NCBI RefSeq assembly: GCF_044324875.1
Contig: NZ_CP172185.1
Origin: Escherichia coli
GTDB lineage: Bacteria; Pseudomonadota; Gammaproteobacteria; Enterobacterales; Enterobacteriaceae
Length of the DNA stretch: 64,000 nucleotides
Strand: one strand, 5' to 3'
Part shown: positions 1 to 45,855 of the stretch, piece after piece
Position numbering within the stretch: position 1 is the stretch's first letter
How the letters are laid out: the number at the start of each line of letters is the position of its first letter
The notes under the pieces: model-generated
What the model was told of the DNA's origin: nothing
The model's input: only the letters and a program-made list of their open reading frames with translations
The model's database searches: none
Translations under genes and position numbers: made by a program

Positions 1-489
1 TGCCCGACGCGTCATTAAATCCGCAGGCAACATTTTCGCTTCAATACAATGTTTTAACGTTTGTTCTATACGGTCATAACTTTCCAGACAGAGATTACGT
101 TGTGCCTGTTGCACAACAGCCATTTCTCCGACAAATTCGCATTTGTGGAATATAATCTCCATCAATAATCGACGCCGTTCTTCTGTCACCGTGGATTCAA
201 GAACATGAATTAATATCTCTCTTAATACTGAGAGTGGATCGCCAGGGAATTTTGCCTGATACTCAAGCTCTAGTTCACCAATATTGGATTCTGACAGTTC
301 CCAGATCTCACTGAACAAATCCGACTTGTCTTTAAAATGCCAGTAGATTGCACCGCGCGTAACGCCAGCTGCTTTTGCAATCTCGCCCAGCGAGGTGGAT
401 GATACCCCCTGCTGTGAGAAAAGACGTAGAGCCACATCGAGGATGTGTTGGCGCGTTTCTTGCGCTTCTTGTTTGGTTTTTCGTGCCAT
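1..489 (-). CDS. acrR: AcrR TetR-family repressor of acrAB; 3' end runs off the window start
   Basis: Reverse-strand ATG at 487-489 reads MARKTKQ..., matching E. coli AcrR; no stop before position 1; divergent from acrA. Confidence 0.9.
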
Positions 490-6999: not shown

Positions 7000-7470
7000 A
7001 TGACCGAAATACAACGCCTGCTGACCGAAACAATTGAGTCTCTAAATACCCGCGAAAAACGCGACAACAAACCCCGCTTTAGTATCAGTTTTATCCGTAA
7101 ACATCCGGGGCTGTTTATCGGTATGTACGTTGCTTTTTTTGCCACCCTGGCAGTGATGTTGCAGTCCGAAACGCTGTCAGGCTCTGTCTGGCTACTGGTT
7201 GTATTATTTATCCTGCTTAATGGTTTCTTCTTTTTCGATGTCTACCCACGCTACCGCTATGAAGATATCGACGTGCTGGATTTCCGCGTTTGCTATAACG
7301 GCGAATGGTACAACACGCGCTTTGTACCTGCCGCGCTGGTTGAAGCCATCTTGAACTCTCCGCGTGTCGCGGATGTTCATAAAGAACAACTGCAAAAAAT
7401 GATCGTCCGTAAAGGTGAACTGTCTTTTTACGATATTTTTACCCTCGCTCGCGCCGAATCAACATCTTAA
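7000..7470 (+). CDS. ylaC: YlaC inner membrane protein (DUF1449)
   Basis: ORF 6961..7470 (GTG-initiated in track) trimmed to ATG 7000, [22 protein letters not shown]..., 156 aa; two hydrophobic helices. Confidence 0.85.
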
Positions 7471-9689: not shown

Positions 9690-9803
9690 GGGTGGGGGCC
9701 CTGCCAGCTACATCCCGGCACACGCGTCATCTGCCTTGGCTGCTTCCTTCCGGACCTGACCTGGTAAACAGAGTAGCGTTGCGGGAGAACCAACAGAGCC
9801 CCC
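9690..9803 (-). ncRNA. ffs: 4.5S RNA, signal recognition particle RNA
   Basis: Reverse complement of 9690-9803 reads GGGGGCTCTGTTGGTTCTCCCGCAACGC...GGCAGGGCCCCCACCC, the 114-nt E. coli 4.5S RNA as recalled; located between ybaA and atl as in K-12. Confidence 0.93.
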
Positions 9804-11997: not shown

Positions 11998-13284
11998 TTA
12001 CGCGTTATAGGCATTCTCGCCGTGGCTGTTGACGTCCAGCCCTTCTCGCTCTTGTTCTTCCGGCACACGCAGGCCAACCGTCAGATCCGCCAGTTTGTAG
12101 CCAATAAATGCCACCACACCGGACCAGACGATCGTAATGGCGATGCTTTCCAGCTGTACCAGCAACTGATGGCCCATCGTCACACCTTCAGCTAAGCCCA
12201 CGCCACCCAGCGAACTGGCGGCAAAAATCCCGGTCATGATACAGCCGACAATGCCACAAACGCCGTGCACACCGAAGACATCGCAGGGATCATCCACCCG
12301 CAGCAAGCGTTTGAGCATGGTAACGCCCCACAAGCCCGCTAGACCCGCTACCACGCCGATAATCAACGCGCCGCCAACCCCAATGTAGCCACAGGCTGGC
12401 GTCACGCCGACCAGACCGGCAATCGCGCCTGAACACGCTCCCAGCAGTGAAGGCTTACCACGCAGCGCCCATTCACCGAAGATCCAGCCAAGAATTGCCG
12501 CCGCCGTTGCGACCACAGTATTCACAAATGCCAGTGCTGCGATTTCATTCGCCGTGCCCGCTGACCCGGCGTTAAAGCCAAACCAACCGATATAGAGAAT
12601 GGCAGTCCCGGTGAAGACCATCGGCAGGTTGTGCGGTTTAAACGCCTCTTTGCCGAAGCCCACGCGTTTGCCTATCAGATATGCGCCCACCAGACCGGCG
12701 ATTGCGGCGTTAATGTGCACCACGGTGCCACCCGCGAAATCCAGTGCACCGTGAGAAGCCAGCAAACCGCCGCCCCAGACCATATGCGCAATCGGAATGT
12801 AAGAGAGCGTCAGCCATACCACCACGAAAATCAACACAGCTGAGAAGCGGATTCGTTCCGCCAGCGCCCCAACTATCAAGCCTACGGTAATGCAGGCAAA
12901 CGATCCCTGAAACGCTACGTGGATATACTGATAAATGCTGCCCATCACCGCCGTCAGTTCGATGTTTTTCAGCATCAACCAGTTAATGTTGCCGAAGAAG
13001 TTGTTTCCCTCACCAAACGCCAGCGAGTAACCGTAAACCACCCAGAGAATACAGACCAGTGCAAACGTCACCGTCACCTGCGTCAGCATCGACAGCACGT
13101 TTTTGCCGCGAATCAACCCACCGTAAAACAGGGCAATCCCCGGAATAGTCATAAACAGCACCAGCGCAGTACAAATCATCATAAACGCATTGTCGGCTTT
13201 ATCGGCCACCGCAGGTGCAGCCATTACCAGTCCCGGCAGCATCGCCAGTGAAGCAAGCCCAGTTTTTATCGTCGCTATCTTCAT
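11998..13284 (-). CDS. amtB: Ammonium channel AmtB
   Basis: 428-aa ORF MKIATIKTGLASLAMLPGLVMAAPAVADKADNAFMMICTALVLFMTIPG... Confidence 0.97.
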   Translation of the reverse strand: MKIATIKTGLASLAMLPGLVMAAPAVADKADNAFMMICTALVLFMTIPGIALFYGGLIRGKNVLSMLTQVTVTFALVCILWVVYGYSLAFGEGNNFFGNINWLMLKNIELTAVMGSIYQYIHVAFQGSFACITVGLIVGALAERIRFSAVLIFVVVWLTLSYIPIAHMVWGGGLLASHGALDFAGGTVVHINAAIAGLVGAYLIGKRVGFGKEAFKPHNLPMVFTGTAILYIGWFGFNAGSAGTANEIAALAFVNTVVATAAAILGWIFGEWALRGKPSLLGACSGAIAGLVGVTPACGYIGVGGALIIGVVAGLAGLWGVTMLKRLLRVDDPCDVFGVHGVCGIVGCIMTGIFAASSLGGVGLAEGVTMGHQLLVQLESIAITIVWSGVVAFIGYKLADLTVGLRVPEEQEREGLDVNSHGENAYNA

Positions 13285-13313: not shown

Positions 13314-13652
13314 TTACAGCGCCGCTTCGTCGGCTTCGCCGGTACGAATACGAATGACGCGTTGCAATTCAGCGACGAAGATTTTGCCGTCGCCAATTTT
13401 TCCGGTGTAAGCCGCCTTACTGACGATATCGATCACTTCATCGAGTTGGTCATCAGCAATCGCCACATCAATTTTTACTTTTGGCAGGAAATTGACGCTG
13501 TATTCCGCCCCCCGGTACAGCTCGGCATGTCCTTTCTGACGCCCGAAACCTTTCACTTCGGTGACGGTCAGGCCCTGAATACCAATGGAAGATAACGCTT
13601 CACGAACGTCTTCCAGCTTGAATGGTTTGATTATCACGGTCACCAGCTTCAT
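13314..13652 (-). CDS. glnK: Nitrogen regulatory protein PII-2 GlnK
   Basis: ORF 13314..13790 trimmed to ATG 13652, MKLVTVIIKPFKLEDVREALSSIGIQGLTVTEVKGFGRQKGH..., 112 aa. Confidence 0.95.
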   Translation of the reverse strand: MKLVTVIIKPFKLEDVREALSSIGIQGLTVTEVKGFGRQKGHAELYRGAEYSVNFLPKVKIDVAIADDQLDEVIDIVSKAAYTGKIGDGKIFVAELQRVIRIRTGEADEAAL

Positions 13653-13703
13653 AGATCCCCTCCGGTCAGAATTCGGTAATGGTTCTGCTACACGAAGAAG
13701 GTA

Positions 13704-13721
13704 TTGCAAGCGGTGTGCCAG
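13704..13721 (-). promoter_or_regulatory. Sigma-54 (-24/-12) promoter of glnK-amtB
   Basis: Reverse strand reads CTGGCACACCGCTTGCA (TGGCAC-N5-TTGCA) about 50 bp upstream of the glnK ATG; NtrC-like TGCACC half-sites lie further upstream near 13790-13830. Confidence 0.75.
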
Positions 13722-13832
13722 AAATGAAAAACGAGAAAGAGAGCAGGAAGTTAAGAAGATTGAAAATGAAAACGCACTATGACAGTGCACAGTGCGTTAC
13801 ATTTTTGCACCAACGATGAAATATTGCGCTAT

Positions 13833-17379
<3,547 letters not shown>

Positions 17380-21449: not shown

Positions 21450-21848
21450 TTACTTAACCATCTGCTCGAGCTTTTCGCGCAATTCCCCTTCCAGAGCTAA
21501 TGCTTTCTGCGTTTTAAGATCAATACAAACAAACGTAATAAGCGCATCCGCTACCACCTGCCCTTCCGGCTCCAGTGTAATGACCTGGCTTAAGATGCCG
21601 CTTTTACCGTTTAATTGCTGCAACTGACTGGTAATGGTTAACAGGTCGCTTAATACCGCCGGGCGACGATAGTTAATATTGATATTGACCACGACGAAGG
21701 CGATGTTATGGGCCGTCATCCACTGAAAACTGTCGCTATTTTCCAACCCATCCCAGCGGGCTTCTTCGAGAAACTCCAGATAGCGGGCGTTATTAACGTG
21801 CTGGTAAACATCGAGATGATATCCACGAACTTTGATTTGTGTTTGCAT
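21450..21848 (-). CDS. fadM: Long-chain acyl-CoA thioesterase III FadM (YbaW)
   Basis: 132-aa ORF MQTQIKVRGYHLDVYQHVNNARYLEFLEEARWDGLE... (hotdog fold). Confidence 0.93.
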   Translation of the reverse strand: MQTQIKVRGYHLDVYQHVNNARYLEFLEEARWDGLENSDSFQWMTAHNIAFVVVNININYRRPAVLSDLLTITSQLQQLNGKSGILSQVITLEPEGQVVADALITFVCIDLKTQKALALEGELREKLEQMVK

Positions 21849-22092
21849 AGCGCAATAACCTTACGTTGTTTTTATAAAAACTGTTATAAGTGCAAAATGG
21901 CATCTGAATCGATCGCAGTTTGGCATTCGAATCGATCATGATTTGGCATCCATCTCCGATCACAGTTTGGCATCACAATCGATCACGATTTGGCATGCTT
22001 CCGATCATTGATTGGCATCCTGCCAGTCACTCCGGGAATTAACTCTTTTCACCACAGTCTCCATTGCCGTGTTTAAACCAGTGGAGACGTCA

Positions 22093-23658
22093 ATGTCCAG
22101 AAAGAGAAAATCCAGGAGCACTATGGAAACCTGTTTTAAGATCCTTCAGCTCAAGTTCGACAAGAAGCTGACTAACCGTTGTATCGGACTGACGTTACAC
22201 ATCAGCGCCTCAACCGTTTTTGAGGTTCTTGCCCGCTTCAAAGCCTCTTCTCTGTCATGGCCATTACCTGCTGATATATCCCATGACACGCTGGAGAAAC
22301 TCATTTTTCCGCCCAAAGACACCTTTGCATCAGAGCTTGTAATGCCTGACATGTTGTACTTCGATACGGAAATGAGAAAACCAGGTGTGACGCGGCAACT
22401 GTTGTGGATGGAATACAAGGCACAGGCGGGTAACAAAGCGATGGGATACTCGCACTTCTGCCGTTGCTACCGGGAGTGGAAAAAAACGCGACGTCTCTCC
22501 ATGCGCCAGGAGCATCGTGCCGGCGAAAAGCTTTTTATCGACTTCTGTGGTCCTACGGTTCCTGTTATTAATCCGGACACCGGTGAGATACGCCGCGTGG
22601 CAATCTTCGTGGCCGTAATGGGGGCGTCCAACTATACCTACGTTGAAGCGTGCGAAGGTCAGGACATGATGTCATGGTTAAATGCCCACAGCCGTTGCCT
22701 GACCTTCCTGGGCGGCGTACCGAAGCTGCTCATCCCCGATAACCTCAGAAGCGCAGTGAAAAAGGCCGATCGATATGAGCCTGTCATCAACGACAGTTAT
22801 CAGGCACTGGCTGAGCACTATGGCACGGTTATCATCCCGGCCCGACCACGCAAACCTAAAGATAAACCAAAAGCAGAAAACGGCGTCCTCATCGTTGAAC
22901 GATGGCTTCTTGCCCGCATCCGTAATGAAACCTTCCACACGCTCAGGGCGCTGAATGCGCGCCTTAGGGAGTTACTGACAGACATGAATAACCGGCCAAT
23001 GAAGGGGTACGGCAATCAAACCCGTGCAGAACGCTTCCGCATACTGGATGCGCCAGCACTCTCTCCGCTGCCTCTGGCACCTTATGAATACACGGAATAC
23101 AAAGCTGTGAAGGTTGGCCCTGACTACCACGTTGAATATGCCCGTCACTGGTACTCCGTTCCACACGAACTGGTCGGTCAGCGTCTGTCACTGAAGGCGG
23201 GGCAGTCGGTGGTACAGCTCTGGCACAAGGGGCAGTGTGTGGCGCAACATCCGCGCAGCACACATGAATATAAACACACAACCAATCCGCTTCACATGCC
23301 AGAGCGCCACCGGCAGCACGGGACATGGACACCGGAACGCCTGATCGAGCAGGGAAAACGTACGGGCCCGTCCACAGGCCGGGTGGTTGAATCCATGCTG
23401 AAGGCAAAACCCCATCCGGAACTGGCTTATCGTGCAGTTCTGGGGCTGCTGGCACTTCAGAAAAAATACGGCCCGGAACGGCTGGAAAAGGCCTGTTACG
23501 TTGCCCTGCACTATAACGCCCCTGACAGACGCTTTATCGACAATCTGCTGCGTCACCATCGGGAGAACCTGGAGCTTCCATTATCCCGCCAGGGCGAACA
23601 ACATCCGGCATATGCTTCAGAGCATGAAAACCTGCGTGGTCCGGGCTACTACCACTGA
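22093..23658 (+). CDS. istA: IS21-family transposase IstA
   Basis: ORF 22012..23658 trimmed to ATG 22093 (ggagacg SD-like sequence upstream); large transposase-sized protein, IstA-like by pattern; start could instead be ATG 22123. Confidence 0.8.
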   Translation: MSRKRKSRSTMETCFKILQLKFDKKLTNRCIGLTLHISASTVFEVLARFKASSLSWPLPADISHDTLEKLIFPPKDTFASELVMPDMLYFDTEMRKPGVTRQLLWMEYKAQAGNKAMGYSHFCRCYREWKKTRRLSMRQEHRAGEKLFIDFCGPTVPVINPDTGEIRRVAIFVAVMGASNYTYVEACEGQDMMSWLNAHSRCLTFLGGVPKLLIPDNLRSAVKKADRYEPVINDSYQALAEHYGTVIIPARPRKPKDKPKAENGVLIVERWLLARIRNETFHTLRALNARLRELLTDMNNRPMKGYGNQTRAERFRILDAPALSPLPLAPYEYTEYKAVKVGPDYHVEYARHWYSVPHELVGQRLSLKAGQSVVQLWHKGQCVAQHPRSTHEYKHTTNPLHMPERHRQHGTWTPERLIEQGKRTGPSTGRVVESMLKAKPHPELAYRAVLGLLALQKKYGPERLEKACYVALHYNAPDRRFIDNLLRHHRENLELPLSRQGEQHPAYASEHENLRGPGYYH

Positions 23659-23674
23659 CAGAAGGAACAACAGT

Positions 23675-24430
23675 ATGAGTGATAACCTGTTAAACAAACT
23701 GACCCAACTGAAACTCCCGGCGATGGCCGGGAGCCTGATACGGCAGCGGGAAACGCCTCAGACCTACGACGAACTGTCGTTCGAGGAAAGGCTGACGCTG
23801 CTGGTTGATGACGAGCTTCTGAGCAGGGAAAACAGCCGTGTGGCACGGTTGAGAAAAAATGCCGGCCTGAAATACCAGGCAACACCGGAAGGGCTGCGCT
23901 ATCCGGCCTCAAGAGGTCTGCGGGCTGAACAGATGAGAGAACTGCTGAACGGCCACTACATAACCCACAGGAAAAACCTGCTGATAACCGGTCCGACAGG
24001 ATGTGGCAAGAGCTGGATAGCCAATGCGCTGGGCGAACAGGCATGTCGACAGAAACACAGCGTCCGGTACTGTAGAACCGGGCGATTACTGGAACAACTG
24101 GCTCAGGGACGTGTTGATGGCAGCTGGCTGAAATATCTGAAACAGTTGCAAAAAATACAGGTTCTAATCCTGGACGATCTGGGGCTGGAACAGTTAAGTA
24201 ACGCCCAGTGTAATGACCTTCTGGAGCTCATAGAGGATCGTTACGGACAAAGCAGCACGATAGTGGTAAGCCAGTTCCCGGTAGATAAATGGCATGGTCT
24301 GATGGAGAACCCAACAACAGCAGATGCCATCCTGGACAGACTGGTACATAACTCACACCGAGTGGTCCTTCAGGGAGAGTCACTGAGGAAAAATCCCCCG
24401 GTAGTGGAAAGCAGCGAAAAAACGCGTTAA
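23675..24430 (+). CDS. istB: IS21-family ATP-binding helper protein IstB
   Basis: ORF 23432..24430 trimmed to ATG 23675 (aagga SD), 251 aa; Walker A GPTGCGKS and Walker B VLILDDLG; 16 bp after the istA stop. Confidence 0.85.
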   Translation: MSDNLLNKLTQLKLPAMAGSLIRQRETPQTYDELSFEERLTLLVDDELLSRENSRVARLRKNAGLKYQATPEGLRYPASRGLRAEQMRELLNGHYITHRKNLLITGPTGCGKSWIANALGEQACRQKHSVRYCRTGRLLEQLAQGRVDGSWLKYLKQLQKIQVLILDDLGLEQLSNAQCNDLLELIEDRYGQSSTIVVSQFPVDKWHGLMENPTTADAILDRLVHNSHRVVLQGESLRKNPPVVESSEKTR

Positions 24431-24545
24431 AAAGCGGTAGAAAAAGTTAAGTTCCCGGTTGATCGAATGGATGCGAATCGCTGATCGGACTTCGATGCCA
24501 ATCCGTGATCGAATAGAGCGGAATACGCAATAAGTACAGAGGTCA

Positions 24546-26991
<2,446 letters not shown>

Positions 26992-30018: not shown

Positions 30019-30149
30019 AGAGCTCTCTCTTAGTTTAATTTCCGCCAGGTAATCAGATGACACGACTGTGCTTCACGCCATCTATTAACATGTACGTCAG
30101 TATATGGGGATGTTTCCCCCACATTCAACGCCGAGAATAGAGGAAAAAT

Positions 30150-30178
30150 TAAAGGGGAGATAAAATCCCCCCTTTTTG
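30150..30178 (-). terminator. Rho-independent terminator after clpX
   Basis: On the reverse strand, gggggattttatctcccc hairpin followed by a U-rich tract, about 30 bp after the clpX stop. Confidence 0.65.
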
Positions 30179-30205
30179 GTTAACTAATTGTATGGGAATG
30201 GTTAA

Positions 30206-32229: not shown

Positions 32230-32474
32230 TTCCGTCTCCTGGATAAAATTGAAAAAACCTGCTGTACCGATTGTAACCTTATGGACGGATTATCAGCTAG
32301 TCCCTGTGTTATGGGTACGGCATCACCATATTTCAAGCATAACAATCTTTTGTTGTTACGCTAACACCGAAAGAGGCTTTTCGCACGGTTCCATGCAAAA
32401 TTCATGACAAAAAAAAGCCCACCACCTGGCGGTGACGGGCTTTTGTGCGAATTTAGCGCGTTATGCTGCGTAAA

Positions 32475-34738: not shown

Positions 34739-35317
34739 ATGTTCAAAAAAATCCTCTTCCCGTTAGTTGCTCTGTTTATGCTTGCAGGATGCGCAAAACC
34801 GCCAACAACTATTGAAGTTTCCCCGACGATGACACTGCCACAGCAGGATCCAAGCCTGATGGGCGTCACCGTAAGCATTAATGGTGCCGATCAGCGTACC
34901 GATCAGGCGCTGGCAAAAGTCACCCGCGATAATCAAATCGTTACCCTGACCGCCTCCCGCGATCTGCGTTTCCTGCTGCAAGAAGTGCTGGAAAAACAGA
35001 TGACCGCGCGTGGTTACATGGTTGGTCCGAATGGCCCGGTTAATCTGCAAATCATCGTTAGCCAACTGTATGCTGACGTGTCCCAGGGCAACGTGCGCTA
35101 CAACATCGCTACTAAAGCGGATATTGCCATCATCGCTACCGCGCAGAATGGCAACAAAATGACCAAAAACTATCGTGCCAGCTACAACGTTGAAGGTGCG
35201 TTCCAGGCCTCCAACAAAAATATCGCCGATGCGGTTAACAGTGTGCTGACCGATACCATCGCTGATATGTCTCAGGACACCAGCATCCACGAATTCATCA
35301 AGCAGAACGCGCGTTAA
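34739..35317 (+). CDS. yajG: YajG lipoprotein
   Basis: ORF 34580..35317 trimmed to ATG 34739, MFKKILFPLVALFMLAGCAKPP... (lipobox), 192 aa. Confidence 0.9.
   Translation: MFKKILFPLVALFMLAGCAKPPTTIEVSPTMTLPQQDPSLMGVTVSINGADQRTDQALAKVTRDNQIVTLTASRDLRFLLQEVLEKQMTARGYMVGPNGPVNLQIIVSQLYADVSQGNVRYNIATKADIAIIATAQNGNKMTKNYRASYNVEGAFQASNKNIADAVNSVLTDTIADMSQDTSIHEFIKQNAR

Positions 35318-44390: not shown

Positions 44391-45855
<1,465 letters not shown>

Follow-up and report, generated by a model that had tools for sequence, protein, structure and literature searches.

The sigma-54 promoter of the Escherichia coli glnK-amtB operon and an upstream palindrome apparently shared by an NtrC site and a predicted terminator hairpin

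The mdlB-glnK spacer and its core promoter element

The DNA analyzed here, a stretch of 64,000 nucleotides that we call the window, is chromosomal DNA of Escherichia coli. Its minus strand carries, in this order, mdlA, mdlB, a spacer of 180 bp, glnK and amtB, and tesB stands on the plus strand in convergent orientation. The upstream edge of the regulatory spacer is the TGA stop codon of mdlB (13833..13835, minus strand). On its other side lie glnK (13314..13652, minus strand), which encodes a PII-family regulator of 112 amino acids, and amtB (11998..13284, minus strand; 428 amino acids), which begins 29 nt past glnK and belongs to the same operon. An earlier note on this DNA, made from the letters alone, had named glnK and amtB as the genes downstream of a sigma-54 promoter; NCBIfam equivalog models identify both of them (NF007946 with 236.8 bits for glnK and NF007947 with 877.8 bits for amtB), in agreement with the RefSeq annotation, and also name SmdB/MdlB and TesB. 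The Shine-Dalgarno (SD) sequence of glnK is GGAGGGG (13657..13663, minus strand), in which GGAG is invariant in nine species. No RNA family was matched in an Rfam search of the spacer; elsewhere in the window, Rfam matches correspond to the sraA sRNA (30090-30185, plus strand, 106.7 bits) and to the ffs small SRP RNA (9699-9795, minus strand, 68.1 bits).

The spacer is present as a single copy, at an identity of at least 95%, in 5423 of 5426 E. coli genomes, and a 751-bp stretch around the promoter, found in 5423/5426, is 100% identical to many complete genomes. Only one base separates the spacer of the window from that of K-12 (strain C600), namely T13759 here versus A in K-12. This position lies just past the U-run of the hairpin described below and outside the promoter, the NtrC dyads, the hairpin stem and the anti-SD segment. 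Since this single difference falls outside every element, the literature on K-12 applies directly: the K-12 promoter glnKp sits at the same locus, with identical core promoter, palindrome, hairpin, anti-SD segment and SD, and nothing functional differs. The strain itself is not K-12, because the window contains elsewhere an insertion of the IS21 family without counterpart in K-12. This ISSso4-like element (about 21870-24530) lies between fadM (21450-21848, minus strand) and ybaV (24598-24969, minus strand), carries istA (22012-23658, plus strand) and istB (23432-24430, plus strand), and offsets the coordinates of the window by about 2.65 kb relative to MG1655, K-12 lacking it at this place. 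Of the 5426 E. coli genomes, 224 contain copies that span at least 80% of its length.

The core promoter, CTGGCACACCGCTTGCA (13705..13721, minus strand), is noncoding and lies inside the 180-bp spacer on the sense strand of glnK. It reads TGGCAC (13720..13715), an inner spacer ACCGC (13714..13710) and TTGCA (13709..13705), flanked on the minus strand by TTTTTCATTTC before TGGCAC and by ATACCTTCTTCGTG after TTGCA. The GG doublet (13719-13718, -25/-24) and the GC doublet (13707-13706, -13/-12) are one helical turn apart, which is the canonical spacing. The earlier note was right in reading TGGCAC-N5-TTGCA with correct GG/GC spacing on the minus strand, its interval of 13704-13721 being this element plus one flanking base per side. 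Also, its distance of about 50 bp to glnK corresponds to 52 nt between the last base of the element and the ATG (13652-13650).

How surprising such a sequence is depends on the space searched. The exact TGGCAC-N5-TTGCA motif occurs once in the 64-kb window, when 0.03 matches are expected from shuffles, and with one mismatch allowed the three matches found are unremarkable against the 2.1 expected. The sigma-54 position weight matrix (PWM) scan that the earlier note had suggested as a check was run in a leave-one-out manner, with a matrix built from the 134 other ChIP-seq motifs (Bonocora et al. 2015) and glnK's own site excluded. The glnK site scores 14.6 bits, at the 56th percentile and hence about the median of real ChIP sites. 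A score this high is contained in 77% of simulated 64-kb sequences, so that the matrix alone does not discriminate across the window; in the 164 sense-strand positions of the 180-bp spacer, only 0.0015 hits are expected at this score. The highest-scoring PWM hit of the window is another one, CTGGCATTATTAATGCT (24767-24783, plus strand, 16.7 bits), antisense inside ybaV, and it coincides with a published low-stringency sigma-54 ChIP-seq site (463347; S2 Table, PMC4591121). Other published sigma-54 ChIP-seq sites in the window lie at 32394-32410 (minus strand), 34874-34890 (minus strand) and 448-464 (plus strand), these being OS02 upstream of clpP, IA04 inside yajG and IA05 inside acrR. Two PWM hits of comparable score, at 7147-7163 and 44844-44860 (both plus strand), are absent from the published lists searched.

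Conservation was assessed with a protein-based scan of one genome per species, which gave 79 glnK loci whose upstream regions of 300-400 bp were inspected. According to tblastn searches with AmtB and MdlB, amtB lies downstream of glnK in 71 of these 79 related loci, and mdlB lies upstream in the 14 Enterobacterales loci except Orbaceae. A sigma-54 motif is present at each of the 14 Enterobacterales loci, with a score of 13.8-18.0 and its end 43-88 nt before the ATG, and most other glnK loci have one too. A functionless chance match to the consensus could be argued from the fact that most random sequences of 64 kb contain an equal score somewhere. However, this has to be contrasted with the exact consensus being met where 0.03 are expected, with the 0.0015 hits expected on the correct strand of the spacer, with conservation in the Enterobacterales and beyond, and with published experimental occupancy. 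Conservation and occupancy already refute a chance match, to which we give practically no credence.

Published occupancy, nitrogen control and the start of transcription

The promoter is a known one: glnKp is the sigma-54/NtrC promoter of glnK-amtB and has already been well studied. In the sigma-54 ChIP-seq data, site OS03 is CTGGCACACCGCTTGCA verbatim, assigned to glnK on the plus strand, with transcription predicted to begin 42 nt ahead of the gene (PMC4591121). Its peak is at 471768 and its motif center at 471761, with an occupancy score (FAT) of 18 and an EcoCyc status that was "predicted", not "confirmed", in 2015 (PMC4591121); the motif center maps to position 13713 of the window, the center of 13705-13721. 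In genomic SELEX, the sequence of the RpoN peak at mdlB>glnK equals CTGGCACACCGCTTGCA (PMC8743547 supplement), and a peak for NtrC is likewise located at mdlB>glnK (PMC8743547). Comparison with the known promoter, another check that the earlier note had proposed, therefore ends in identity of the 17-mer with both the OS03 and the RpoN gSELEX sequences.

Binding by NtrC and control by nitrogen have been documented in vivo. ChIP-seq of NtrC in nitrogen-starved cells gives a glnK-amtB peak at 471741-471821 with 39.7-fold enrichment (PMC4066584); this interval corresponds to 13733..13653 of the window and, being 80 bp wide, lies over the core promoter, offset from the palindromes, and does not resolve the sites. 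When glnG is deleted, glnK mRNA is hard to detect, and complementation restores it (PMC4066584). Ammonium starvation raises the NtrC-specific activity at glnKp about 400-fold over that of ammonium-rich cells (PMC3870243), and a 50-bp E. coli glnKp can be activated by NtrC from synthetic enhancers (10.1101/086108). The Salmonella Typhimurium promoter of glnKamtB (STM0462), in the orthologous position, has the core TGGCACATCCTTTGCA, with the same TGGCAC and TTGCA as in E. coli and three substitutions in the 5-nt inner spacer. It is bound by sigma-54 in ChIP-chip and depends on NtrC and nitrogen limitation, and its lacZ fusion yields 1.1 Miller units in nitrogen-replete versus 1778 in nitrogen-limited cells, with rpoN dependence (PMC3844500), an induction reported as about 1600-fold (PMC3844500). 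The control by nitrogen limitation that the earlier note attributed to this operon is thus well founded, given the NtrC ChIP-seq peak, the glnG-dependent glnK mRNA and the Salmonella fusion. Sigma-54 occupancy, NtrC occupancy of the region and dependence on NtrC, sigma-54 and nitrogen limitation have all been shown in published experiments, which we matched to this sequence.

It could still be argued that the sigma-54 site is occupied yet unproductive, like many intragenic ones, and that glnK-amtB owes its transcription to a different promoter or to read-through from mdlAB. The ChIP-seq paper itself makes the point that binding sites are not necessarily promoters (PMC4591121), and the EcoCyc listing of this promoter as predicted goes in the same direction. 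Against this, the orthologous region of Salmonella drives lacZ with the sigma-54-dependent rise from 1.1 to 1778 Miller units, and NtrC activates the E. coli glnKp from synthetic enhancers. Moreover, a sigma-70 promoter scan of the mdlB-glnK spacer found none, and the hairpin and SD sequestration discussed below oppose read-through. We consider an unproductive site to be extremely unlikely, and glnKp to be, almost certainly, the single sigma-54-dependent, NtrC-activated promoter of the E. coli glnK-amtB operon.

Transcription of glnK probably starts near 13694 (minus strand), a position placed 12 nt downstream of the -12 C (C13706), which would give a 5' UTR of 42 nt. The same base is obtained from the rule of PMC4591121 (motif center +19, distance 42). 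A start at 13694 puts the sequence CCTTCTT (13701..13695) at -7..-1, and in this it agrees with the published 7-nt CT-rich insulator centered at -4 (10.1101/086108).

NtrC-type sites and their helical phase

We searched for NtrC sites using the 17-bp dyad consensus TGCACCANNNTGGTGCA (TGCACCA-N3-TGGTGCA), expected about 80-150 bp upstream of +1. A search with up to three mismatches finds nothing in the spacer. The best palindrome, TGCACTGTCATAGTGCG (13773..13789, minus strand, center about -87), has four mismatches and emerged from a scan at 10/14 matches together with conservation. Farther upstream, at a distance of 33 bp from this proximal site, lies an NtrC-like 17-mer, ATTTCATCGTTGGTGCA (13806..13822, minus strand, 8/14, center about -120), of which only the TGGTGCA half (13812..13806) matches. 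An alternative candidate register of the distal site is TGCAAAAATGTAACGCA (13809..13793, minus strand, 9/14, center -107). The earlier note had placed NtrC half-sites containing TGCACC near 13790-13830. This was partly correct: the plus strand does read TGCACC at 13806-13811 (GGTGCA on the minus strand), a conserved half-site with 8/14 matches to TGCACCANNNTGGTGCA, and the best palindrome (13789..13773) falls just outside that range. Both halves of the proximal palindrome, TGCAC and GTGCG, are invariant in the nine Enterobacteriaceae compared, and the TGGTGCA half-site is conserved in eight of the nine. In Citrobacter the same 33-bp pairing of NtrC-like sites is found at -130/-97. Taken together, these observations make the palindrome at 13789..13773 the strongest candidate for an NtrC site at glnKp.

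The arrangement recalls that of E. coli glnAp2, which has a -24/-12 element (TTGGCACAGATTTCGCT) and is activated by looping, as glnKp would be. The NtrC sites of glnAp2 are about 32-33 bp apart, at -140/-108, in helical phase classes that are also those of the glnK loci. However, they are high-affinity sites, near to the consensus, that overlap the sigma-70 promoter glnAp1, whereas glnKp has one 10/14 site and one half-site, standing closer (-87/-120) and without an overlapping sigma-70 promoter. Atkinson and colleagues are said to have found in 2002 that glnKp requires more NtrC~P than glnAp2, with later firing in starvation. We detected no IHF site between enhancer and promoter when searching for the IHF consensus with up to one mismatch.

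When the nine Enterobacteriaceae are aligned, the invariant positions are TGGCA/TTGC of the core promoter, TGCAC-N7-GTGCG-TTTT, the CGC of the preceding ACGCAC and the SD, and TGGTGCA is nearly so. Between these conserved islands the DNA is freely substituted and variable in length. Homologous palindromes are present in Yersinia, Rahnella, Acerihabitans and Photorhabdus, and analogous ones at many gamma- and beta-proteobacterial glnK loci. Their distances from the promoter fall into discrete classes. Centers of the homologous palindromes are at -87 in Escherichia, -97 in Citrobacter, -118 in Superficieibacter, -130/-131 in Klebsiella sp. and Photorhabdus, and -140 to -142 in Enterobacter, Yersinia, Acerihabitans and Rahnella; the glnK dyads of Pseudomonas, Marinobacter, Cycloclasticus and others are at -97/-98, -108 to -111, -128 to -131 and -139 to -144. 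Across taxa, dyad distances step by whole helical turns (-87, -97, -109, -118, -130, -141 and -151). For periods of 10-11 bp, a Rayleigh test gives p ~0.02 with the five enterobacterial spacing classes (-87, -97, -118, -130 and -141) and p <0.001 with 26 sites; at the control periods of 7, 8, 9, 12 and 13 it is not significant. As the sites are a manual collection from related genomes, we take the phasing as supportive, not decisive, evidence that the NtrC dyads stand in one helical phase relative to the promoter across glnK loci. Enterobacter, Yersinia and Acerihabitans have one more NtrC-like 17-mer, some 62 bp upstream of their main dyad.

Sigma-54 enhancers have been proposed to tolerate insertions and deletions of whole helical turns, and enhancer-promoter distances differ in this way between species (PMC4740811). 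The phasing at glnK loci fits this idea, as well as the glnAp2 sites at -140/-108. In the same manner, the loop lengths of the sigma-54 enhancers bound by LuxO at the Vibrio qrr genes are quantized by about 11 bp, with whole-turn differences between species like those of the glnK loci. There, however, the activator and the genes are other ones, and the glnK pattern has been collected by hand from fewer independent lineages. The whole-turn shift of enhancer distance in natural glnK loci is probably of some small value in itself.

A terminator-like hairpin on the palindrome and the proposed insulation of glnK

The proximal palindrome does not stand alone. A terminator scan recovers an intrinsic-terminator-like element (13762..13798, minus strand) that overlaps it, composed of a stem AACGCACTGTG (13798..13788), a loop CACTGT, a stem CATAGTGCGTT (13781..13771) and a U-run TTTTCATTTT (13772..13763). 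The U-run is read by the terminator scan as TTCATTTTCA (element 13798..13762), and is also given as UUUUCAUUUU. The hairpin has an 11-bp stem and a 6-nt loop, and starts about 35 nt past the mdlB stop. Folding of the RNA from 13835 to 13755 gives -23 kcal/mol (z = -3.3), with none of 200 shuffles as stable. Hairpin and T-run are present in all nine Enterobacteriaceae, in which GTGCGTTTT is invariant and 91.9% of the stem pair cells are standard pairs. One stem pair is fully compensatory, being C-G in five species and U-A in four, and its 5' member is outside the NtrC 17-mer; the switch probably happened just once in evolution, and one half of the stem is under additional constraint as an NtrC site. 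A mapped RNA 3' end at the U-run was looked for without success, the E. coli Term-seq supplements that were searched having no entry for mdlB or glnK, something that low expression of mdlAB could account for. The hairpin with its U-run is likely to be the intrinsic terminator of mdlB, and is treated here as a predicted one.

The existence of this hairpin raises the question of whether the block at 13762-13798 could be solely the terminator of mdlAB, with NtrC binding elsewhere or needing no specific site. Several observations fit: the hairpin and U-run conform to the pattern of a terminator and fold well (z = -3.3), GTGCGTTTT is invariant in nine species, the compensatory pair includes a base outside the NtrC 17-mer, and the palindrome has just 10/14 matches to the NtrC consensus. 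However, Yersinia, Rahnella, Acerihabitans and Photorhabdus keep the palindrome without any T-run, and in two of them, Yersinia and Photorhabdus, mdlB is followed by a hairpin and T-run of its own, separate from the NtrC-type palindrome. Moreover, NtrC-type palindromes upstream of the sigma-54 motif occur in Pseudomonas, Marinobacter, Cycloclasticus and others that have no mdlB there, the distance from palindrome to promoter shifts by whole helical turns, which a terminator does not need, and NtrC is found on this region in vivo and in vitro. That the palindrome is more than a terminator follows from its being kept without the T-run and in phase with the promoter, and we regard the terminator as sole function of the block as improbable. 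Still, the conservation of the palindrome within the Enterobacteriaceae could be due in part to the overlapping hairpin.

What emerges is that an NtrC enhancer site and a terminator hairpin appear to be merged in the Enterobacteriaceae. Since the two elements are separate in Yersinia and Photorhabdus, their overlap would be a lineage-specific fusion. We found no published description of an overlap between enhancer and terminator, in a literature search that did not include the primary glnKp papers.

The second device that would keep glnK silent is the sequence CCTTCTT (13695..13701, minus strand, -7..-1), published for the 50-mer of glnKp as an anti-Shine-Dalgarno insulator, which is present in read-through RNA only. 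Levy et al. have described that glnKp silences expression from upstream promoters independently of rpoN; the CT-rich segments responsible, above all the 7-mer at -4, act by base-pairing with the SD that follows (10.1101/086108). A further CT-rich tract lies at about 13732-13759. Folding of the native sequence is in line with this description: in read-through RNA, 13701..13694 pairs with the SD (13663..13657) at a probability of 0.8-0.99, and the probability of the SD being unpaired is 0.01, versus 0.67 in a transcript started at 13694. Sequestration of the SD is strong in E. coli, E. albertii, one Photorhabdus and one Enterobacter, and in most genera it is no better than in composition-matched shuffles of the CT-rich upstream sequence. 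We make no claim of conservation of the insulator beyond Escherichia.

These elements can be assembled into a scheme for the control of glnK-amtB. Sigma-54 holoenzyme sits on the -24/-12 element (13721..13705) in a closed complex unable to initiate alone. Upon nitrogen limitation, phosphorylated NtrC would assemble on an upstream enhancer made of the palindrome at 13789..13773 and of the partly matching conserved sequence around 13822..13793. From there it would reach the polymerase by looping of the CT-rich spacer of about 65 bp, which has no IHF site, a geometry that we infer, and its hydrolysis of ATP would open the promoter, for a start near 13694. Unless the promoter fires, the operon would be silenced at two levels. 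The first would be the predicted terminator-like hairpin after mdlB, on the very bases of the NtrC palindrome; the second, the CT-rich anti-SD segment just upstream of +1, which would hide the glnK ribosome-binding site in read-through RNA only.

In its strongest form, this scheme would have about 17 bp of DNA play a dual role in the Enterobacteriaceae, as NtrC enhancer when read as DNA and as the loop-proximal part of the mdlAB terminator hairpin when read as RNA, as the outcome of a lineage-specific fusion; combined with the anti-SD segment, it would build a two-layer insulation that makes expression strictly dependent on the sigma-54 promoter. We advance this full version tentatively, as a serious possibility that is somewhat more likely to fail than to hold.

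GlnK and AmtB govern ammonium uptake and the PII signaling branch in nitrogen starvation, and glnKp serves as a standard reporter for the activity of NtrC. Its recognition in raw sequence makes a good positive control for the scan and tells nothing new about the promoter. What is mildly new is that the NtrC enhancer and the predicted mdlB terminator appear to share bases. Such shared bases, if they are what they appear to be, would constrain the evolution of either element, and they would be relevant whenever this region is mutated or reused as a part.
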